Positions 48,237 through 58,965 of a DNA stretch of 58,965 nt are shown here, one piece after another. The stretch comes from Patescibacteria group bacterium. GTDB lineage: Bacteria; Patescibacteriota; Minisyncoccia; UBA6257; UBA9933. The position numbers were made by a program, and so were the translations under genes. The DNA lies in assembly GCA_038078555.1 (NCBI GenBank), contig JBBTYQ010000001.1, forward strand, positions 1-58,965, in the 5' to 3' direction. Positions within the stretch are counted from its first letter, which is position 1, and each line of letters starts with the position of its first letter. A model generated the notes under the pieces. That model saw nothing but the letters and a program-made list of their open reading frames with translations. It made no database searches and was not told where the DNA came from.

Positions 48237-49025
48237 TTATTGCGCGTTATAGCTTATAGGATAAAACACTATATCTTTTCGCGCGCCAGACTTTCTTAAA
48301 ACCGCCGTAGTGCCTGCTTCAATGTTGTTGAAGCAAGCCAGGCAATTTGACTCTAAAAATTTCGTTTTCTTTTTAGTCCTTAAGTTTAGGAAAAACGCTT
48401 CGCCACTTTCTAGCGTCACGGCCAGCGTATTGCCATAAGGTTTGTCAATAAACCTTATGTCTTCCTTTGTTTCCCAAAGCTCTTCCGAGCGCGAAACCCA
48501 GCAAAGAGCGCCAACATCTTTAAGATTGATTTTCCATATCTTGTTTTCTGAAACAAAGATAAGCTCGTTCTCGTTTAAAAATCTGATGCTTTTAGCATAA
48601 ACATCGGGAATTTTGACGAGCTCTTCTTTTTTTTCAGCGCCAAGATAATAACTGGAAAATCCCTCCTCAAATGTGGAGTTTCCCGGAAAATAGACCATCG
48701 ATTTTTCCCAAACCTTCATTGTTTTTACAAGCGTCTTAATTACTTTTGCCATTAAGACGCTTAAAGGATCTGGCGCGGTTAAGGCAACAACATAATTTTT
48801 GCCCTTCCAATGCGCGGCATTTATCCAAGCTGAGCCAGTCCGCACTTCATTGCAAAGATGAACTGGCACGACAAGCTTACGACCAATGGGATAAATATTC
48901 TGCGCAATGGTGGCAAAAATTGCCTTGCCCCGGCTGGATATTCCAAAAGCAATATCCAGTTTTGGATTGACTCCTTTCGAAAGATTTTCCATCGAAACTT
49001 TTCTCGTAACCACTTTCGCATCCAT
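48237..49025 (-). CDS. Uncharacterised 262-aa protein (paralogue A of a two-member family in this window)
   Basis: Intact ORF with SD AAGGGGGAAG. It is collinear with 53004-53828, with KPYGNTLAVTLESGEAFFLNL vs RPEGNLLAISTESDVPYYVDV both at residues 195-215. LDIAF/LDIEV lie near the N-terminus and VFYP/QFFP near the C-terminus. Confidence 0.7.
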   Translation of the reverse strand: MDAKVVTRKVSMENLSKGVNPKLDIAFGISSRGKAIFATIAQNIYPIGRKLVVPVHLCNEVRTGSAWINAAHWKGKNYVVALTAPDPLSVLMAKVIKTLVKTMKVWEKSMVYFPGNSTFEEGFSSYYLGAEKKEELVKIPDVYAKSIRFLNENELIFVSENKIWKINLKDVGALCWVSRSEELWETKEDIRFIDKPYGNTLAVTLESGEAFFLNLRTKKKTKFLESNCLACFNNIEAGTTAVLRKSGARKDIVFYPISYNAQ

Positions 49026-51645: not shown

Positions 51646-52827
51646 TTAATCGCGTCCCTTATTTTTCCCAAAAACTCCTTTTTCTCTGGAAATCCGGCTT
51701 GATTTCAAAGCAAACCGGTGCGCCTCATCCCTTAATTCTATCAGAGTTTCAGTTATTGCTTCTGTTGATTCCTTAATTGATTTTTTGGTTTTTGCCGGAA
51801 AAACCAGCTTATCGCCGGCCAATTTGGAAATTCCCATTAAAGCAATATTAATATTTAAATCTTTCAGGGTTTTCTCAATATAATCAACCTGCGGTTTGCC
51901 GCCGTCAATCAAAATTAAATCAGGAAAAGGCCACTCTAAATGCTTAAATCTTCTGACAATTATTTCTTTTAAAGCCTTTAAATCATCTGACGCTGGCGCG
52001 TTTTTAATTTTAAACAACCGATAGCTTGCCTTATCCGGCTGGCCGGAAATAAAAACCGCAAGTGAACCGTAAGTTTCTCTGCCGGTCAAATGAGATATAT
52101 CATAACCTTCAATGCGGTTAAATTTAGCGTTCGTTGTTGATTCTTCTTTAGTAATCAAAGCCACGTCCTGAATATGTCGCAAAGCTTTGATTTTTTCCGG
52201 ATTTTCATATTTCAATTTTTCTATTAATTTTTTATGCTGGCCGGATAGCATCAAAATAATATTTTTTATATTTTTTTGATAATCGTTTTTTGAAATTGCG
52301 CCGATGCACGCTCCCGGGCATAATCCTATTTGATAATCAAAACAAGGTTTGCCTTGATTTGGCCGGCATGTGCCGTAAGGAAAAATCCTCCGGATTATTT
52401 TTAAAGCATTTTTAATTAAAGCCAGGCTGGTATAAGGACCGAAAACGTTAGCCTGACGAAAATAAAATTTTTTTAATTCTCTGCCTCTTAAAATAATCGG
52501 CCTGGGATAATCATTTTTTGAAATGACAACATATAAAAAAGAACGGTCGTCCTTCTCTTTAATATTATATTTGGGCCAATATTTTTTTATTAAATTTGCC
52601 TCAAGAATTATCGCTTCTAAAATATTTCCGGTTTTTTGATAATTTATTTTTGAAGCCAAATTTACCATCTCTCCTATTCTTTGATCTAAATTTTTTTGAA
52701 AATAATTTAATACCCTCTTTCTCAAAGAAATCGCCCGGCCCACATATAAAACTTTGCCTTTTTTATTGATAAAAAGATAAACTCCGGGGAGTAAAGGTAA
52801 TTTTTTGGCTTGTTCTATAAGCTTCAT
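51646..52827 (-). CDS. uvrC: Excinuclease ABC subunit C, compact form (no C-terminal HhH2 region evident)
   Basis: GIY-YIG domain LPGVYLFINKKGKVLYVGRAISLRKRVLNYF, the CFDYQIGLCPGAC motif, and the RNase H-like endonuclease region IEGYDISHL...LILIDGGKPQ. The ATG is at 52827. Confidence 0.85.
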   Translation of the reverse strand: MKLIEQAKKLPLLPGVYLFINKKGKVLYVGRAISLRKRVLNYFQKNLDQRIGEMVNLASKINYQKTGNILEAIILEANLIKKYWPKYNIKEKDDRSFLYVVISKNDYPRPIILRGRELKKFYFRQANVFGPYTSLALIKNALKIIRRIFPYGTCRPNQGKPCFDYQIGLCPGACIGAISKNDYQKNIKNIILMLSGQHKKLIEKLKYENPEKIKALRHIQDVALITKEESTTNAKFNRIEGYDISHLTGRETYGSLAVFISGQPDKASYRLFKIKNAPASDDLKALKEIIVRRFKHLEWPFPDLILIDGGKPQVDYIEKTLKDLNINIALMGISKLAGDKLVFPAKTKKSIKESTEAITETLIELRDEAHRFALKSSRISREKGVFGKNKGRD

Positions 52828-52910
52828 AAAGATATTTATAAAACAATTGGCTCTTTTATTCAAATTAGCGATCCTTTAAATATCTTAAAGTAAAAAGTTA
52901 TAAAAAATTA

Positions 52911-52948
52911 GAAAATAAAATACCCCACATCATATAGACTGTGGGGTA
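52911..52948 (-). terminator. Intrinsic terminator of orphan paralogue B
   Basis: Minus strand reads TACCCCACA-loop-TGTGGGGTA followed by TTTTATTTT. Confidence 0.8.
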
Positions 52949-52955
52949 GTATGAA

Positions 52956-52971
52956 AACCTTGGCGAAGGTT
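52956..52971. repeat. Hairpin repeat AACCTTGGCGAAGGTT (inverted partner at 53861-53874)
   Basis: The 12-nt core CCTTGGCGAAGG at 52958-52969 has its reverse complement CCTTCGCCAAGG at 53862-53873, so the pair brackets gene B. Confidence 0.7.
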
Positions 52972-53003
52972 GATTCTTAAAGCTTGAAGCTTTGAAACTG
53001 AAG

Positions 53004-53828
53004 CTATTGCTGGAGCTGGAACTGCTCGGCCGGGAAGAACTGTACCGCAGTCTCGTCCTTCTTCATGAGGGCAATGTTATTGCCTCTCACTCTGCCGATT
53101 AAAGCGGCGCCCCTGAACTCCTCGATGCCTTCGATGCCCTTGATCTGCTTCTTATTGCAGATCTGATTCTTCAGGCACTCGTTGACGTCGACATAGTACG
53201 GGACGTCGCTTTCGGTTGATATTGCAAGAAGGTTTCCTTCCGGCCTGCCGAGGTAAACGATCTCGCTGTTAGCCTTGGCCAACAGCTTGGCGTCTTGAAG
53301 CCAGTTTTTTGTCTTGGCTATGGAGGTCAAGGGGATGCTCAGAAGCTCCTTGCCATGGGTGAAGACAAGAATCTTTGCCAAAGCAATGATCCTTGCTGTT
53401 GAAGCCGATATGTAGCTTCCGCCCATCGTGGAAATCTCCTCTGGCTTTCCGGTTGCGCTGAAAAAGACGTTGGTCTTTTTCAAGAGCGTGCCCGCGGGAT
53501 ATAGCGCGTCTGTCTTTCCCTTGATATCCATGGCCTCTAAAATACGAGCCACGACAGACATCTCGGACTTGGTAAACAGCCCGAAAGTCTCGACTATCAA
53601 GAGATTCTCCTGCTTCTGAATACTCTTGATATGCGCTCCCGTGAAGCTTGCTTCTTCGAATGGCGCTCTGGCTCTCTCCTCGACCGACAGCGGCGTGTTC
53701 AGTTGCAGAACGGTCGCTGTGCCGTTATTGTTCACCTCGATGTCCAAACCGGCCTCGGTGTTTGTCGCGGCTATCTCCCGCAAGTTCCCTATGATCCTTT
53801 TTTCCACTATCAGTTTTCTCGGCTCCAT
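53004..53828 (-). CDS. Uncharacterised 274-aa protein (paralogue B), compositionally atypical
   Basis: Intact ORF with SD AAAGGAGAA. Hand counts give 30/60 G+C in lines 53041-53100 and 53281-53340, against 20/60 in the uvrC line 52501-52560. It is collinear with 48237-49025. Confidence 0.7.
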   Translation of the reverse strand: MEPRKLIVEKRIIGNLREIAATNTEAGLDIEVNNNGTATVLQLNTPLSVEERARAPFEEASFTGAHIKSIQKQENLLIVETFGLFTKSEMSVVARILEAMDIKGKTDALYPAGTLLKKTNVFFSATGKPEEISTMGGSYISASTARIIALAKILVFTHGKELLSIPLTSIAKTKNWLQDAKLLAKANSEIVYLGRPEGNLLAISTESDVPYYVDVNECLKNQICNKKQIKGIEGIEEFRGAALIGRVRGNNIALMKKDETAVQFFPAEQFQLQQ

Positions 53829-53949
53829 TCTTCTATTCTCCTTTTTTTGTTGTTTTTTTACCCTTCGCCAAGGGTTTTCTCAAAAATATGTAATATGTAA
53901 AGAGCTGATTGCTTTTCAAAAAAAATACGCCGATGAAAAGCGAAATTTA

Positions 53950-53978
53950 ATAATAGCAAAGTTTAATTTCTCTGTCAA
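53950..53978 (-). promoter_or_regulatory. Sigma-70 promoter TTGACA - 17 nt (ending TGC) - TATTAT driving paralogue B
   Basis: Minus strand: -35 at 53973-53978 and -10 at 53950-53955. Confidence 0.55.
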
Positions 53979-54026
53979 GGCCATAAACCTTATTATCAAA
54001 TAAATAAGCGACCTAGTTTTTATATT

Positions 54027-56552
54027 TTACTGTATTAAATATTCCTTTAAATATCTTCCCGTGTAAGAACCTTTTATTTTTATGATTTCCTCGGGCGTGC
54101 CTTTGCCGATAATCTTTCCGCCAGCTTCCCCGCCTTCCGGTCCAAGGTCAATGACATAATCCGCGGATTTTATAATATGCATGTTATGTTCGATAACCGC
54201 AATAGTATTTCCTTTATCCACCAGTTTATTTAAAACTTTAAGCAGCATTTCTATATCATAATAATGAAGCCCTACGCTCGGCTCATCAAGCAAATACATT
54301 GCTCTTTTGCCTAATGGATGAGTTAATTCTCGCGCCAATTTTATTCTTTGAGCCTCGCCGCCTGATAATGTAGTGGCTGATTGGCCTAATTGCAAATAAC
54401 CCAGGCCCACTTCTATTAAAACTTTCAGCTTGTCGGTAATCGTATAAAGCCCGTCAAAAAAATCTATTGCTTCATCAACCGTCATTTCCAAAATTTCATG
54501 GATGTTCTTGCTTTTATGCTTAACCTGAAGCGTTTCGCGATTAAATCTTTTGCCATTACAAACATCGCACTGGACAAGCACGGCCGGCAAAAAATGCATT
54601 TCCACCAGATTAAAGCCCGCGCCTTGGCAAGCTTCACATCTTCCTCCGCTGACATTAAACGAAAATCTTGAGGCGGTATATCCTTTAGCGCGAGACTCTT
54701 CCAAAGAAGCAAAAAAATCTCTGATAGGCGTAAAAATTCCCGTATAAGTTGCCGGGTTAGACCTGGGAGTCCGGCCAATCGGCGATTGGTCAACCATCAC
54801 CACTTTGTCTATATATTCAGTTCCTAAAATCTGGCTGACTCCTTCCAAAGGCTCGTTAAATCTGGCTTTTATTCTTTCCAAATTTTTATATAAAACATCG
54901 TACAATAAAGAAGATTTTCCGCTGCCTGAAACTCCGGTTAAGCAAATCAGTCTCCGCAGGGGAATTTCTACGTCTATGTTTTTTAAATTATTGGCTCTGG
55001 CTCCGATGATTTTTATTTTTTCCGTTTGCTTTGACCGCCTGATTTTTGGCACTTCAATTTTTTTCTCCCCTGATAAATACTTGAGAGTCAAAGATTTTTT
55101 GTTGATTGCTTGAGATTGTTTTACCCCGCCTAATAATTTTTTTATCTCGCCTATTGCCACCACTTCACCGCCATTTTTTCCGGCTAAAGGCCCCAAATCA
55201 ACCAGATAATCCGATTCATTAATCGTCCGTTCATCATGCTCTACGATAATTAAACTGTTGTTTTGGTCTTTAAGCGCTTTTAAAGTTTTTATCAGTCTTT
55301 CTGTGTCGCGCTCATGAAGCCCGATAGTCGGCTCGTCTAAAACGTACAAAGTTCCTGATAATTTCGAACCAATCTGCGAAGCCAATCTTATTCTCTGAGC
55401 CTCGCCACCAGATAATGTCTCGGCTTCACGATTTAAAGACAAATAATCAAGCCCGACCTCCAACAAAAATTCTAACCGACCGACAATTTCCTTTAAAACA
55501 TTCTGTGCTATTTTTCTTTCCCGCTCGGTTAAATTGTTTTCATATTCGGCAAAAAATTCATAAGCCTTATCAATAGTTAAGGCAGTGACTTCATGAATGT
55601 TTTTTCCGCCGATTTTTACAGACAAGGCTTCTGGCTTCAATCTTTTTCCCTTGCAATCCGGACAAATTGTGCCAAGAAACAAATCGGTTTTGCCCAACCC
55701 AAAACAAGTTTGGCACGCTCCGTAAGGGCTATTAAAAGAAAAAAGTCTTGGTTCAACTTCAGGAAAAGCGAAATTATCATTAGGACAAGTCCACTTAGAA
55801 GAAAGTAAAAGCTCAGTCTGATTTTTTTTATTTTCATTAAAAACCGCGCGTACTAATCCCTTGCCGTGATTAAGCGCGCCTTCAACCGCCTCAAAAATCC
55901 GGCTCTCATCTTTTATTAAAACCCTGTCAATAACAATTTCAATGGTATGCATTTTGTATCGGGAAAGAGGAATTTTTTCATGAAGCGAGTGATATTTTCC
56001 GTCAATTCTCGCTTCGGAAAATCCCAGAGAAAGAAAATCGTAGAGCAATTGGTAGTATTCTCCTTTTCGGCCGCGCACCGCTGGCGCCAAAATCAAAATT
56101 TTTTCCTCTTTTAACTCTTTGGCTTTATTAATAACAATATCAACTATTTCTTCTAACGAAAGTTTTTTAATTTTTACGCCGTCAAGCGGACAATAAACCT
56201 CGCCCAATCTCGCGTAGAGCACTCTTAAATAATCGTAAATTTCTGTAAGCGTGCCTACGATTGACCGCGGGTTATGAGACAAAGCCCGCTGATTAATGGC
56301 AATAGCCGGTGAAAGTCCGATAATTTCATCAACATCCGGACGGTCCATTTGACCTAAAAACTGCCTGGCGTAAGGCGATAAAGATTCAATATATCTTCTC
56401 TGGCCTTCGGCAAAAATCGTATCATAAGCCAAAGAAGACTTGCCGCTGCCGGAAACTCCGGTAAAAACTACCAGCTTGTTTTTCGGCAACTCCAAATCTA
56501 TATTTTTCAAATTATGCACTCGGGCGCCTTTTATAATTATTTTGTCCTCCAT
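54027..56552 (-). CDS. uvrA: Excinuclease ABC subunit A (compact, about 841 aa)
   Basis: IIIKGARVHNLKNIDLELPKNKLVVFTGVSGSGKSSLAYDTIFAEGQRRY, two ABC modules (LSGGEAQRI twice) and zinc-finger cysteines. The first ATG is at 56552; the track start at 56558 is TTG. Confidence 0.96.
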   Translation of the reverse strand: MEDKIIIKGARVHNLKNIDLELPKNKLVVFTGVSGSGKSSLAYDTIFAEGQRRYIESLSPYARQFLGQMDRPDVDEIIGLSPAIAINQRALSHNPRSIVGTLTEIYDYLRVLYARLGEVYCPLDGVKIKKLSLEEIVDIVINKAKELKEEKILILAPAVRGRKGEYYQLLYDFLSLGFSEARIDGKYHSLHEKIPLSRYKMHTIEIVIDRVLIKDESRIFEAVEGALNHGKGLVRAVFNENKKNQTELLLSSKWTCPNDNFAFPEVEPRLFSFNSPYGACQTCFGLGKTDLFLGTICPDCKGKRLKPEALSVKIGGKNIHEVTALTIDKAYEFFAEYENNLTERERKIAQNVLKEIVGRLEFLLEVGLDYLSLNREAETLSGGEAQRIRLASQIGSKLSGTLYVLDEPTIGLHERDTERLIKTLKALKDQNNSLIIVEHDERTINESDYLVDLGPLAGKNGGEVVAIGEIKKLLGGVKQSQAINKKSLTLKYLSGEKKIEVPKIRRSKQTEKIKIIGARANNLKNIDVEIPLRRLICLTGVSGSGKSSLLYDVLYKNLERIKARFNEPLEGVSQILGTEYIDKVVMVDQSPIGRTPRSNPATYTGIFTPIRDFFASLEESRAKGYTASRFSFNVSGGRCEACQGAGFNLVEMHFLPAVLVQCDVCNGKRFNRETLQVKHKSKNIHEILEMTVDEAIDFFDGLYTITDKLKVLIEVGLGYLQLGQSATTLSGGEAQRIKLARELTHPLGKRAMYLLDEPSVGLHYYDIEMLLKVLNKLVDKGNTIAVIEHNMHIIKSADYVIDLGPEGGEAGGKIIGKGTPEEIIKIKGSYTGRYLKEYLIQ

Positions 56553-56648
56553 ACTCAAAAGATAAAACCCCCTGTTTTTTAATCCTTAGGGGTACTTATT
56601 TTAAACTTTATGTCTAATATTTTATGAAGTCAATTAAAACGCCAAAAT

Positions 56649-56729
56649 GCGATGAGCCGATACTTCAAAAACATGCGCTATTGCTGGCTGAAAATCGGCT
56701 CATTCGCAAATCAGTCTTGAGCCGATTTT
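56649..56729 (-). promoter_or_regulatory. Three copies of GAGCCGAT/ATCGGCTC forming two mutually exclusive hairpins upstream of uvrA
   Basis: AAAATCGGCTCA (56691-56702) pairs perfectly with TGAGCCGATTTT (56718-56729). The same ATCGGCTCATTCGC (56694-56707) also pairs with GCGATGAGCCGAT (56649-56661), with one bulge. Confidence 0.45.
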
Positions 56730-57301
56730 TATAAGTTTGATAATAACATCAGAGCTGAAGAAATCACTGAAATAACCGCCGCCTGAAAAGCAATCCACTT
56801 TAATTTATTATTTATTGCTCTTTTAGGCCCGTGAAAAAGCATATGAAATTTTTGCAGCTGGATAAAAGGCGCTTTTTTAAAAATCGCATAAGCCACTTGC
56901 ATTGCGTCTGGCAAAATACTGCCAAAAATCATAACTATTATCATTAAAATTGCCTCAAAATTAATTTCCGGCCGGATAATCAAAAATCCTATTGCCGCGC
57001 CCAACAGAAAATCAAAAAACATTTTTGCCGAATCTTTTAAAATAAAATGGCGGTTGAGCTCCAATTTTTTATTCGGCAATAATATTTTATCAGTATTTTT
57101 TTTTAAAATTGTTTTTTCCGCTTCGTCGTCATCTTCTTTGATTGACCAGATTTTATAATCCCAGTGAGGAATTAAATCAACCAAGTAATGGCTCAAAAGC
57201 GCAATTACAAAAATAGCCAGCGCGTTAAAAACGCTTGCCGGCCGGTTAATCAAAGAAACAGTTGCCGCTGAAGCCACGATAATATGAGATGAAAGAATCA
57301 T
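56729..57301 (-). CDS. Polytopic membrane protein, possibly DUF457/YdjM-like membrane-bound hydrolase
   Basis: Five to six TM helices and a LSHYLVDLIPHWDY motif. It sits between uvrB and uvrA. Family assignment is tentative. Confidence 0.4.
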   Translation of the reverse strand: MILSSHIIVASAATVSLINRPASVFNALAIFVIALLSHYLVDLIPHWDYKIWSIKEDDDEAEKTILKKNTDKILLPNKKLELNRHFILKDSAKMFFDFLLGAAIGFLIIRPEINFEAILMIIVMIFGSILPDAMQVAYAIFKKAPFIQLQKFHMLFHGPKRAINNKLKWIAFQAAVISVISSALMLLSNL

Positions 57302-57312
57302 TAGTGTTAAAT

Positions 57313-58965
57313 TTAATCTATTTTTTCCCCCGTCTCAATCAATTTTTCTATTTCTTTCTTGATGCTCTGGGGCGTAATGCCGTGTTTTTTATTATACTCT
57401 GACTGTATTTTTCTTCTACGCTCGACCACGCTGACTGCCCGCTTAATTGAACCTGTTAAATTATCAGCGTATAAAATTACTTTGCCCAGGACATTTCGGC
57501 TGGCCCGTCCCATAGTTTGAATTAAAGAAGATTCCGAACGCAAAAAACCTTCGCGGTCAGCATCAAGAATCGCCACTAAAGATACTTCCGGCAAATCCAA
57601 CCCTTCTCTTAACAAATTAACGCCAACTAAAACATCAAATCCGCCTTTATCCGACCCTTTTCTAAAATCAGTTAAAATTTTAATCCGCTCTAAAGTTTTT
57701 GTTTCCGAATGCATATAATTAACTTTAAATTTTTCTTTTTTCAAAAAGTCAGCCAAATCTTCCGCCATTTTTTTCGTCAAAGTGTTGATAATTGCCCGAC
57801 CGCCTTCTTTGGTTATTTTTTTAAGCTCTTCAATTATATCGTCAATCTGGCTCCTGTTCCTGCTTTTATCAAACACCGGCCTTATTTCAATCGGCGGGTC
57901 AATCAACCCGGTTGGCCTGATAATCTGCTCCACGATTTGAGAAGAATTTGTTAATTCATATGACCCTGGCGTAGCTGAAGTAAAAATCGCTTGATTGATA
58001 AACTTTTCAAATTCCGTAAATTTTAGCGGCCGGTTATCCAAAGCAGATGGCAATCGCCAGCCGTATTTCGCCAAAATTTTCTTCCGGCTTTGATCGCCCT
58101 CATACATCCCTCTTGCTTGAGGCACAGCTACGTGGCTCTCGTCAATAATCAGCAAAAAATCCGATTTCCCGCCTTTAGACGGAAAATAGGAAAGTAAAGT
58201 GTCCGGCGGTTCGCCGGAGACTTTTCCCGCCAGATGTCTTGAATAATTTTCTACGCCGTGGCAATAACCTATGCTTTTAAGCATTTCCATATCATATCTA
58301 GTTCTTCGTTCCAGTCTTTCTGCTTCAAGATAAAGATTTTTTTTATTAAAATAATCCAACCTTTCTTTTAATTCTTTTTTAATCTCTTTTATGGCAGTAT
58401 CAATTTGCGGTCCGGTAGAAATAAAATGCTTAGGCGGAAATATCACCAATTCTTTTTTATTTTCAATAAATTTTCTTGTTAAAGGATCGGTAATGGCGAT
58501 TGTTTTTATTTTCTGCTCTTCTATTTCAATATAATTTATCAGATTTCCACCGGCCGGCATTATTTCGAAAAAATCACCTCTCACTCTAAATGACCCTCTT
58601 TTTAAAGCGCCAATTGTTCTTGAAAAATGCATTCTGACAAGCTGTCGCATTAAATCTCCTCTCGTAATCGGTTTTCCAATTTCCAAATGAATGGCGGACT
58701 CCAGATAATTCAAAGGCACGCCAAGATTATAAATACAAGAAACTGAAGCCACTACAATCACGTCTCTTCTTGAAAGCAAGGCGCTGGTCGCTTGATGCCT
58801 CAAGCGATCGATTTCCTCGTTTATCATTGCCTCTTTTTCAATATAAGTATCGGTAGAAGGCAAGTAAGCTTCAGGCTGATAATAATCGTAATAAGAAACA
58901 AAATAATTGACCGAGTTTTCCGGAAAAAAAGTTTTATATTCGTGATAAAGCTGGGCAGCCAAAGA
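57313..58965 (-). CDS. uvrB: Excinuclease ABC subunit B (N-terminus lies beyond window end)
   Basis: NYFVSYYDYYQPEAYLPSTDTYIEKE, helicase motifs LIIDESHV, TSATPG and GVNLLREGLDLPEVSLVAILDADREGFLRS. Confidence 0.95.
   Translation of the reverse strand, partial: SLAAQLYHEYKTFFPENSVNYFVSYYDYYQPEAYLPSTDTYIEKEAMINEEIDRLRHQATSALLSRRDVIVVASVSCIYNLGVPLNYLESAIHLEIGKPITRGDLMRQLVRMHFSRTIGALKRGSFRVRGDFFEIMPAGGNLINYIEIEEQKIKTIAITDPLTRKFIENKKELVIFPPKHFISTGPQIDTAIKEIKKELKERLDYFNKKNLYLEAERLERRTRYDMEMLKSIGYCHGVENYSRHLAGKVSGEPPDTLLSYFPSKGGKSDFLLIIDESHVAVPQARGMYEGDQSRKKILAKYGWRLPSALDNRPLKFTEFEKFINQAIFTSATPGSYELTNSSQIVEQIIRPTGLIDPPIEIRPVFDKSRNRSQIDDIIEELKKITKEGGRAIINTLTKKMAEDLADFLKKEKFKVNYMHSETKTLERIKILTDFRKGSDKGGFDVLVGVNLLREGLDLPEVSLVAILDADREGFLRSESSLIQTMGRASRNVLGKVILYADNLTGSIKRAVSVVERRRKIQSEYNKKHGITPQSIKKEIEKLIETGEKID

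Follow-up and report, generated by a model that had tools for sequence, protein, structure and literature searches.

A GC3-rich orphan gene inserted between uvrA and uvrC of a Patescibacteria genome, with mRNA ends predicted to pair

Base pairing between the two ends of a bacterial message has been described for the hbs mRNA of Bacillus subtilis, in which a 14-bp interaction of the 5′ and 3′ UTRs modulates cleavage by RNase Y (Braun, Durand and Condon 2017, PMC5737220). The gene analyzed here lies in a window of 58,965 nucleotides (contig JBBTYQ010000001.1, the whole stretch of DNA that was analyzed) and resembles hbs in being monocistronic, with a structured leader, a strong Shine-Dalgarno sequence, and a predicted helix of roughly 14–15 bp linking the 5′ UTR to the 3′ UTR and placed just 5′ of the terminator; its host, like B. 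subtilis, also encodes a toolkit of RNase Y, RNase J and RNase III. It differs from hbs in that the pairing is predicted from covariation and folding, in its conservation over an entire orphan family whose arms come in six or more co-varying variants, in the length of sequence enclosed by the helix (about 0.9 kb here and about 0.3 kb in hbs), and in the composition of the enclosed coding sequence, which is anomalously rich in GC at third codon positions (GC3). To our knowledge, long-range 5′/3′-UTR pairing has been documented in only a few bacterial mRNAs, and for Patescibacteria we know of no genetic system and of almost no RNA biology. The locus adds a predicted pairing of this kind that is kept, with compensatory changes, over an entire patescibacterial gene family. 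The host is an ultra-small groundwater bacterium. We consider it probable on balance that the gene is autonomous and has mRNA ends that pair, and that its third-position GC excess recurs in its family.

A preliminary description of this DNA had reported uvrB, a membrane protein, uvrA and uvrC as co-directional, with a unit of about 1 kb separating uvrA from uvrC. This arrangement is present: uvrB, a 190-aa ORF for which a Pfam search gave no match, uvrA (54027–56558, 843 aa), a 274-aa ORF (ORF274 or P0001, 53004–53828) and uvrC (51646–52827, 393 aa counted from the ATG; its upper coordinate is either 52827 or 52863) follow one another in transcription order, all on the minus strand, as do all features given below. 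Every sequence feature that had been named could be found again, in place or a few bases off, and we describe them here in comparison with the genome of a Ca. Wolfebacteria organism of a different genus (G002; the genome of the window is G000). The promoter that had been called near-consensus is a sigma-70-type sequence (TTGACA - 17 nt - TG-n-TATTAT, 53950–53978) matching 11 of 12 positions together with an extended −10, and was the top match of the region in a promoter scan; TTGACA promoters of a similar kind precede other family members. Read from the sequence, the leader then carries the element CATCGGCGTA followed by T8 (53918–53935), a weak hairpin with a U-run that is common to this unit and the family member of genome G058, and the motif GCTCTTTACATAT (53893–53906), which is the local form of a GTTCTTT(G/A)ACA sequence found in the leaders of most family members. 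The 5′ arm follows (AAACCCTTGGCGAAGGGT in the mRNA, 53860–53877), and then a Shine-Dalgarno sequence GGAG, 9 nt 5′ of the ATG (53838–53841), that is kept in G002. Beyond the stop codon lie the palindrome that had been noted there (AAAGCTT-G-AAGCTTT, 52979–52993), whose sequence is not kept in G002, where another small palindrome takes its place, and the 3′ arm (CCTTCGCCAAGGTTTT in the mRNA, 52954–52969), which is reverse-complementary to the 5′ arm. The unit's own terminator is also where it had been placed (52909–52946): a stem at 52923–52929 / 52940–52946 (CCCCACA - 10-nt loop - TGTGGGG) is followed by TATTTTATTTT. Since its 10-nt loop exceeds the 8-nt loop limit of our hairpin scan, it was read directly from the sequence, and a terminator hairpin occupies the same position, 3′ of the 3′ arm, in every family member. 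A putative promoter for uvrC (TTGAAT - 17 nt - TATAAA, 52835–52863), judged from its sequence and not among the matches of the promoter scan, ends 7 nt before the uvrC ATG and has a counterpart in G002 (TTGAAT - 17 nt - TATAAC).

The 1.06-kb unit is a complete autonomous gene, with a promoter, a structured leader, a Shine-Dalgarno sequence, a 274-aa ORF, a 3′ arm and a terminator. Four independent assemblies from replicate groundwater samples are 100% identical over the unit junctions, so that the gene arrangement is not an assembly chimera. A structured RNA in place of a gene was also considered and rejected, given that an Rfam scan of positions 52000–55000 returned no match at E ≤ 1 and no tRNA or tmRNA genes were found in the window.

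Together, the arms form a 16-nt inverted repeat (52954–52969 / 53862–53877) that is 94% complementary and exact over 12 nt; the 12-nt core has only two sites in the window, and at least two matches were reached in 2 of 100 shuffles. The preliminary description had recognized these inverted copies around the coding sequence, together with the capacity of each to form a 6-bp hairpin with a 4-nt GGCG/CGCC loop (ACCCUU-GGCG-AAGGGU for the 5′ arm), and both points hold, but it had also taken the copies to bound the unit. The arms instead lie inside the predicted transcript, 3′ of the promoter and 5′ of the terminator, and co-vary throughout the family at whichever locus a member resides, and thus are not insertion boundaries. 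In 12 of the 14 family genes, a 5′-UTR arm of 10–15 nt has an exact reverse complement after the stop codon, a complementarity reached in 0–2 of 300 shuffles per member, and at least six arm sequence variants occur across the family. Treating the arms as a 15-bp helix gives 90% paired cells, with double (compensatory) changes at 9 of the 15 pairs; none of 500 shuffles reached this covariation score, and slid controls were 32–54% paired. The positions of promoters and terminators put both arms within one predicted transcript, and whole-transcript folds gave the arm helix a mean probability of 0.92–1.00 in 11 of 11 members, although equilibrium folding leaves out ribosomes and the kinetics of co-transcriptional folding, in which the local 5′ hairpin is the first to form. 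Family members need not have the pairing, because the paralogs in the MgtC-DsbA slot of both genomes (G000_262 and G002_286) have no 3′ arm. The first of these is a distant paralog of 262 aa that occupies the window's conserved MgtC-(x)-DsbA slot (48237–49025) and retains a remnant 5′ arm, CTTGGCGAA.

We infer from these patterns that the arms may pair in vivo and may have some role in stability. The 5′-UTR arm, of 12–16 nt, would pair with its reverse complement after the stop codon and close a message of about 0.9 kb into a loop. By analogy with hbs, such a helix would keep RNase Y, RNase J and 3′ exonucleases away from the leader and the 3′ end or, alternatively, might create a processing site, and either effect would presumably tune the lifetime and translation of the mRNA. 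Genes for RNase III, RNase Y and RNase J are all present in the genome.

The compositional jump suggested by an earlier estimate of about 50% G+C in the coding sequence is real and extreme, rather than fading into an ordinary profile once properly computed. ORF274 has a GC content of 0.519, against approximately 0.34–0.40 in neighboring genes and 37% in the genome, and its GC3 of 0.695 ranks first among 478 ORFs with a genome mean of 0.340 (sd 0.052); GC1 and GC2 (0.49 and 0.37) are slightly raised as well. In 50-nt windows, GC content goes up at the ATG (0.36 to 0.56) and back down at the stop codon (0.58 to 0.38), such that the excess is limited to the coding sequence and falls mainly on third codon positions, while the UTRs are AT-rich and of native composition. 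High GC3 recurs in other members, including those of G063 (0.739 vs about 0.47 in neighbors) and G001 (0.59 vs about 0.40) and the protein P0004 (0.787 vs 0.45–0.56); in half of the family it is near-native, however, so that as a family trait it is patchy. Neither ribosomal genes nor others of obviously high expression are among the ORFs with the highest GC3 in the genome, which argues, short of a formal test, against translational selection for GC-ending codons. Because the excess is kept in both G000 and G002 despite saturated synonymous sites, a gene-specific force appears to maintain it. Candidates for this force would be selection on the body of the mRNA (to avoid AU-rich cleavage sites, for instance), GC-biased conversion, or repeated replacement of the coding sequence. 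On the best reading, the GC excess is not a transient scar of one recent transfer.

An empty site, as the preliminary description had proposed to look for, exists in three relatives (G008, G014 and G029), in which uvrA abuts or overlaps uvrC without the unit; in G002 the junction holds a homolog, and in G013 a homolog sits upstream of uvrC. Within the conserved uvrB-x-uvrA-uvrC cluster, the unit represents a derived insertion. We also found that it is bracketed by a perfect 15-nt direct repeat, TCCTTTAAATATCTT, that the preliminary description had not reported: one copy (54043–54057) lies within the last uvrA codons (..RYLKE..), and the other (52872–52886) duplicates part of the uvrA 3′ end and is located upstream of uvrC. 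A direct repeat of this length was reached in none of 3000 shuffles, which had a maximum of 13 nt, and it is missing in G002. The cluster of G002 has the same order as that of the window, namely uvrB, the membrane protein, uvrA, a 264-aa ORF with a GC3 of 0.717, uvrC, MgtC and a second family member. The flanking repair proteins of the two genomes are 67–84% identical (67% for uvrC and 84% for uvrA), as compared with 29% over only 52 aa for the cassette proteins, and the cassette coding sequences are too diverged for DNA alignment. Yet approximately 50 nt from the 5′ arm to the Shine-Dalgarno sequence, together with the 3′ arm, are nearly identical, and from this identity and the synteny we consider common ancestry of the two insertions most likely. 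The unit would then have entered an ancestrally contiguous uvrA-uvrC junction, most likely before the G000 and G002 organisms split. A phylogeny of the protein family was tried as a means of deciding between duplication and transfer, but the tree was a star without resolution, with branches of about two substitutions per site.

Judged by its sequence, the ORF274 product belongs to a small, very fast-evolving and uncharacterized orphan family. Searches against Pfam, PHROG, NCBIfam, PADLOC, and the PDB by sequence and by profile gave no match, which led us to reject any known protein family, and only four remote homologs were identified among 1.8 billion representative proteins. The family profile matches 7 of 51 genomes of the host's own Wolfebacteria-like taxonomic family, including two of four within one genus, and of the 301 genomes searched in the order, none beyond that family gave a match; in the genomes searched, the family is confined to this single lineage of Patescibacteria. 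A word-indexed profile search for further members returned only the two proteins of the window, and a search of metagenome and genome collections for further cassettes by way of the conserved 5′ arm recovered only the G002 organism again. The members of G063 and G001 and those on the P0004 and P0003 contigs share a flanking YbaB gene, which is followed on the latter two contigs by PyrD and a histidine kinase.

Two other explanations of the arms must be weighed against pairing of the mRNA ends. Each arm may be a separate local stem-loop, serving as a protein-binding hairpin, an operator or a stabilizer, with the 5′–3′ complementarity arising as a side effect of both being copies of a single palindromic motif. 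The arms of G000 and G002 can indeed each fold as a 6-bp hairpin with a 4-nt loop, and matches to the motif are over-represented in the taxonomic family (33 vs 8 for a reversed control); there is also some covariation within the hairpins (77% of cells paired, with 2 of 500 shuffles reaching the score), although this score lies below that of the 15-bp helix and slid controls were nearly as good. What makes the explanation improbable in our view is that in every variant the loop nucleotides of one arm are the exact complement of those of the other (GGCG/CGCC, CGGCGAA/TTCGCCG, CGGCAA/TTGCCG), a match that a hairpin does not need, that the P0003 arms (CATGACTCGGC/GCCGAGTCATG) are unable to form a hairpin at all, and that the two hairpins would present different loops on the sense RNA. 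The arms might otherwise act as DNA, either as recombination sites of an invertible segment, which would make the unit a switch that flips the ORF relative to a promoter outside the inverted repeats, or as homology or recognition arms for the swapping of coding bodies between genomes. Like invertons, the unit has short, perfect inverted repeats (10–15 bp) around the ORF, with the promoter and also the terminator outside; moreover, arm covariation would be equally expected from homogenization of a DNA-level inverted repeat, for example one that serves in recombination or is bound on both strands. Exchange of the body would account for flanks that are conserved while the coding sequence between them is hypervariable and compositionally odd, as in the nearly identical flanks and unalignable coding sequences of G000 and G002, and identical arms occur on cassettes in two slots, uvrA-uvrC (G000 and G002) and MgtC-DsbA (G058). 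We nevertheless give DNA-level action little credence. Unlike an inverton, the ORF is co-oriented with its promoter and terminator in 12 of 12 arm-bearing members and in all four assemblies, no invertase or recombinase was detected among the eight neighboring ORFs scanned, and a flipped segment has no evident coding potential and would express no ORF led by a Shine-Dalgarno sequence; the cassette is single-copy in the genome, and arms of 10–16 bp are short for homologous exchange. Transposon or MITE ends were rejected because the inverted repeats sit 70–115 nt inward of the direct repeats, and are also enclosed by the promoter and terminator, in a single-copy unit that has no transposase domain. 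The variable region of a diversity-generating retroelement (DGR) was rejected likewise, as a blastn search of the cassette against the whole genome at word size 7 returned only the self match and no template-like repeat.

The preliminary description had interpreted the compositional jump and self-sufficiency of the unit as horizontal acquisition into a conserved repair cluster. In its strongest form this would mean that a foreign gene from a donor of about 50–55% GC recently landed between uvrA and uvrC, the GC3 excess being a donor signature that has yet to ameliorate and the 15-nt direct repeat a target duplication. Several elements of this account stand, namely a derived insertion, an autonomous gene, a real GC jump and the bracketing direct repeat, while recent foreign DNA with element ends does not, and we regard recent acquisition as unlikely. 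The unit does resemble a classical genomic islet, as it is the largest GC3 outlier of the genome with GC1 and GC2 slightly raised, is absent at the junction in several relatives, has a significant direct repeat and its own promoter and terminator, and belongs to a patchily distributed family (7 of 51 genomes, and two of four in one genus). Unlike such an islet, however, it comes with no donor: the protein-level search that had been suggested for the 274-aa protein gave a best non-self match, among 15 billion clustered sequences, of only 32% identity, encoded on an AT-rich contig, and its protein family does not extend beyond the taxonomic family of the recipient. Our searches turned up no link to an integrase, a transposase, a tRNA, a phage or a plasmid, and phage or plasmid cargo was rejected after tblastn searches of phage and plasmid collections gave no matches and IMG/VR yielded no relatives of the ORF274 product. 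The UTRs are as AT-rich as native sequence, the GC step falls exactly at codon boundaries and the anomaly is limited to third positions of the coding sequence. Members that are apparently vertically inherited in conserved synteny are also GC3-elevated, and the positional orthologue in another genus has conserved UTRs, an equally high GC3 and a saturated coding sequence; given this saturation between G000 and G002, amelioration should long have erased a donor signature.

The locus is consequently a clean counter-example to the routine inference of recent horizontal transfer from a GC jump and a separate promoter: a third-position anomaly that is bounded by start and stop codons and kept in a saturated orthologue would have to be maintained by a cause different from donor composition. 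With this family one could examine whether selection or biased conversion is able to keep the GC3 of a single gene 35 points above that of its genome. One may postulate a tighter connection between the arms and the coding body, which we put forward as speculation that is more likely to be wrong than right by a wide measure. The gene might specify an armored mRNA, in which the helix tying the UTRs together and a GC3-rich body kept by selection against AU-rich endonuclease sites would give an unusually long-lived message; or the conserved arms might be handles for cassette exchange, by which the hypervariable coding body would be repeatedly swapped from a GC-rich pool. Either scenario, if true, would represent a new, lineage-specific coupling of UTR architecture to codon composition.

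Structure prediction offers some indication of what the gene encodes. The AlphaFold model of the ORF274 product (pLDDT 79, pTM 0.78) contains about 20 short strands in repeated sheets, as in beta-propellers such as WD40/Tup1 and the clathrin terminal domain, and propellers were the top Foldseek matches (E of about 3e-4, probability of about 1.0). The protein departs from beta-propellers in its TM-scores of only 0.30–0.45, short of the 0.5 that superposition on known propellers calls for, in matching no propeller family by sequence profile, in its shorter length of 274 aa and in a long helix inserted at residues 87–102, and the product is best described as predicted to be beta-rich and propeller-like. 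The locus thereby draws attention to an uncharacterized and extremely fast-evolving protein, predicted to be propeller-like, that is encoded beside the genes of nucleotide excision repair.

The uvr cluster lies on the minus strand, and ORF and Pfam calls place uvrB (57313-58962+), a 190-aa ORF without a Pfam match (56729-57301), uvrA (54027-56558), ORF274, the 274-aa frame of the cassette (53004-53828), uvrC (51646-52827, counted from its ATG) and a gene of the MgtC family in that order. All the signals that the preliminary description had ascribed to the cassette were found. On the minus strand these comprise a promoter matching at 11 of 12 positions (TTGACA, 17 nt, TG-n-TATTAT; 53978..53950) and a terminator whose stems, at 52923-52929 and 52940-52946, precede a U-run; an inverted repeat pairs a 12-nt core at 52958-52969 with a reverse-complementary copy at 53862-53873, extending to 16 nt at 94%, and the palindrome AAAGCTT-G-AAGCTTT occupies 52979-52993, the terminator and palindrome being read from the sequence. 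As four assemblies made independently from replicate Hainich H41 0.1-um groundwater samples agree at 100% identity over the locus, an assembly chimera was ruled out.

Judged by synteny, the cassette is an insertion relative to the ancestral state. The junction is empty in two genomes of the same family (G008, G014) and one of another family of the order (G029), where the end of uvrA lies 0-31 nt from the start of uvrC or overlaps it. Other genomes of the order carry unrelated fillers of 0.4-1.2 kb here (loci L015, L018, L019, L021, L022 and L025), which makes the junction a recurrent insertion site; one filler, in G038, is a 292-aa ORF with an N-terminus that is patatin-like in appearance. A perfect 15-nt direct repeat, TCCTTTAAATATCTT, is present in the last codons of uvrA (54043-54057) and just upstream of uvrC (52872-52886), a length reached in 0 of 3000 shuffles (maximum 13). 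Because the UvrA C-terminus in the window (..GRYLKEYLIQ) resembles native ends in relatives (..YLKKYL and ..YLKEYLS), the copy beside uvrC probably duplicates part of the uvrA 3' end, which fits a duplication made at insertion.

The same slot is occupied in Candidatus Wolfebacteria bacterium RIFCSPLOWO2_01_FULL_38_11 (G002), whose cluster is identical: uvrB, membrane protein, uvrA, a 264-aa ORF, uvrC, MgtC and a second family member. The 264-aa ORF belongs to the ORF274 family. The same arms enclose it, with AAAACCCTTGGCGAAGG on its upstream side and CCTTCGCCAAGGTTTTT on its downstream side, and a terminator comes next. Identity between the two genomes is 80% for UvrB, 84% for UvrA, 84% for MgtC and 67% for UvrC; for the cassette proteins the only alignment is a local one, at 29% over 52 residues. 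At the DNA level, two stretches are nearly identical, namely the 3' arm and the approximately 50 nt that run from 5' arm to Shine-Dalgarno (SD) sequence, and the coding sequences are unalignable. The most economical reading of these comparisons is a single insertion predating the split of both genera, followed by very fast protein divergence under strongly constrained UTRs. Targeting by a diversity-generating retroelement (DGR) was excluded because the genome holds no template repeat. UvrA is 843 aa long in the window and 830 aa in G002. UvrC has just 393 aa, with GIY-YIG and RNase H-like endonuclease domains; Pfam detected no HhH tail. A short UvrC is kept in relatives (open frames of ~390-450 aa). 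A putative uvrC promoter (TTGAAT-17-TATAAA; 52835-52863, minus strand) ends 7 nt ahead of the ATG and has a counterpart in G002 (TTGAAT-17-TATAAC); uvrC thus appears to be driven by its own promoter, and this spacing implies an mRNA that is leaderless or nearly so.

Pfam, PHROGs, NCBIfam, PADLOC and PDB sequences gave no match to the ORF274 protein, P0001, and when 5.8 billion clusters were searched by word index it matched only itself; exhaustive phmmer against 1.8 billion representatives recovered four remote relatives at 22-32% identity. The window also contains, at a distance of 4 kb, a remote paralogue of 262 aa (48237-49025). Within the same taxonomic family the profile matched 7 of 51 genomes, G002 among them, and it matched nothing outside that family among the 301 genomes searched in the order. 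An AlphaFold model built on a 14-sequence alignment was fairly confident (pLDDT 79, pTM 0.78) and contained ~20 short strands and a few helices; its best PDB matches in Foldseek were beta-propellers (clathrin terminal domain, Tup1 WD40, DDB1; E ~3e-4, TM-scores 0.30-0.45), so the predicted fold is propeller-like, with no closer assignment. The paralogues in the MgtC-DsbA slot of the window's genome (G000; 48237-49025) and of G002 (L067:1465-2325) are syntenic, yet share ~28% identity over 83 aa, and extreme divergence is therefore a property of the whole family and not of the GC-rich copy alone.

We extracted the flanks of all 14 locatable family genes, of which the genome collection supplied 10 and metagenome contigs the other four. 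They have a common architecture: a TTGACA-type promoter, leader, 5' arm, A-rich spacer, SD, ORF, 3' arm and intrinsic terminator. Two members lack the 3' arm, namely the paralogues in the MgtC-DsbA slot of G000 and of G002, which are the genomes that also hold an arm-bearing copy at the uvrA-uvrC junction. In 12 of the 14 genes, the longest exact complement linking 5' UTR to 3' UTR spans 10-15 nt (110 nt on each side; 0-2 of 300 shuffles each). Arm sequences vary among members, and both arms of each gene stay reverse complements: CCTTGGCGAAGG and CCTTCGCCAAGG (5' and 3', respectively) in G000, G002 and G058; CCTCGGCGAAAGG and CCTTTCGCCGAGG in G013 and P0002; CCTCGGCAAAGG and CCTTTGCCGAGG in G054 and G055; CCTTGGCAAGGGGC and GCCCCTTGCCAAGG in G001; CTTGGCAAGG and CCTTGCCAAG in G063; and, in three further members on metagenome contigs, TGCCTTGGCAAGGGC and GCCCTTGCCAAGGCA (P0004), CCCGGCGAAGGATAT and ATATCCTTCGCCGGG (P0005), and CATGACTCGGC and GCCGAGTCATG (P0003). 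The inverted repeats described earlier as bracketing the cassette are present, but they are a family hallmark lying between promoter and terminator, and hence within the predicted mRNA.

In an anchored alignment, the 15-bp inter-arm helix was 90% paired, with changes on both sides in 9 of 15 pairs; none of 500 shuffles scored as high for covariation, and a shift of the partner by 1-3 columns reduced pairing to 32-54%. For each of the 11 members tested, the window gene among them, whole-transcript equilibrium folds gave this helix a mean pair probability of 0.92-1.00. A model in which each arm folds alone as a local hairpin fares worse: it is 77% paired, with slid controls almost equal, it leaves unexplained why, in every variant, the "loop" bases of one arm complement those of the other, and the P0003 arms are unable to form any hairpin. 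The same covariation would be expected if the repeats acted on DNA, as an inverton or as exchange handles; against this, a single orientation was found in 12/12 arm-bearing loci and 4/4 assemblies, no recombinase was found among the eight neighbouring ORFs scanned, the cassette is single-copy in the genome, and the flipped state has no evident coding potential. Rfam did not support a hidden structured RNA.

Pairing of the arms would join both ends of the cassette message. There is a documented precedent in Bacillus subtilis, where a 14-bp interaction that links the 5' UTR to the 3' UTR of the hbs mRNA modulates how RNase Y cleaves the leader (PMC5737220), while the pairing described here is predicted from sequence. 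Given this precedent, and as genes for RNase Y, RNase J and RNase III are present in G000 (each with a score over the curated cut-off), we infer that pairing of the arms would have a role in controlling mRNA decay, processing or translation. Most members also carry a GTTCTTT(G/A)ACA motif 8-25 nt upstream of the 5' arm (window 53893-53906; L059, L062, L067, L068, L070, L071), which may be an anti-SD or protein-binding site. A leader element at 53918-53935, CATCGGCGT(A) followed by T8, is common to the window cassette and the G058 member (L059), which occupies the other slot, MgtC-DsbA; this suggests that the promoter-proximal leader moved along with the gene, and the element could serve as an attenuator. 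Lone CCTTCGCCAAGG copies elsewhere (G000 C1:205157-205168; L037, L040, L049) sit in GC-rich stretches translating as ..LRQGFGGQ.. or ..LRQGYGGQ.. and look like a separate short repeat recurring in these genomes.

The reported compositional jump was borne out. GC content is 0.519 in ORF274, 0.34-0.40 in neighbouring genes and 0.372 across the window, and the excess falls mostly at third codon positions (GC1/GC2/GC3 of 0.49/0.37/0.695 vs ~0.44/0.33/0.35 in neighbours); ORF274 is the top GC3 outlier among the 478 ORFs of the 558-kb assembly (mean 0.340, sd 0.052). The step seen in 50-nt windows falls at the start and stop codons, with UTRs as AT-rich as the remainder of the genome.

The jump had been taken as a sign of horizontal acquisition, a reading that several points disfavour in its simple, recent form. 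The anomaly is confined to the coding sequence, mostly at third or synonymous positions, and GC3 is equally high in the G002 positional orthologue (0.717 vs ~0.39 in its neighbours) despite saturated synonymous sites, by which point a donor signature should be gone; the amelioration expectation, reportedly set out by Lawrence and Ochman in 1997, is that such a signature fades over time. Members with YbaB downstream (G001, G063, P0003 and P0004; on the contigs of the last two, PyrD and a histidine kinase come after YbaB) are GC3-elevated as well: 0.59 vs ~0.40 in neighbours for G001, 0.739 vs ~0.47 for G063, 0.787 vs 0.45-0.56 for P0004 and 0.62 vs 0.51-0.58 for P0003. No donor, phage, plasmid or mobility gene was detectable for the cassette in protein-cluster, phage, plasmid and viral collections. 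Transfer is nevertheless allowed by the patchy distribution of the family (7/51 genomes), near-native GC3 in about half of its members, a star-like tree without branching order, and the direct repeat, which marks a discrete insertion event. From these compositions we conclude that a lasting, gene-specific force keeps GC3 high; this could be selection on the message, recombination-linked GC-biased conversion, or repeated replacement of the coding body via the conserved flanks. The second-strongest GC3 outlier of the genome, outside the window (C3:34059-34694, minus strand; GC 0.542, GC3 0.642), is without CCTTGGCGAAGG arms, has its own terminator and encodes a Cys- and His-rich protein of 211 aa.
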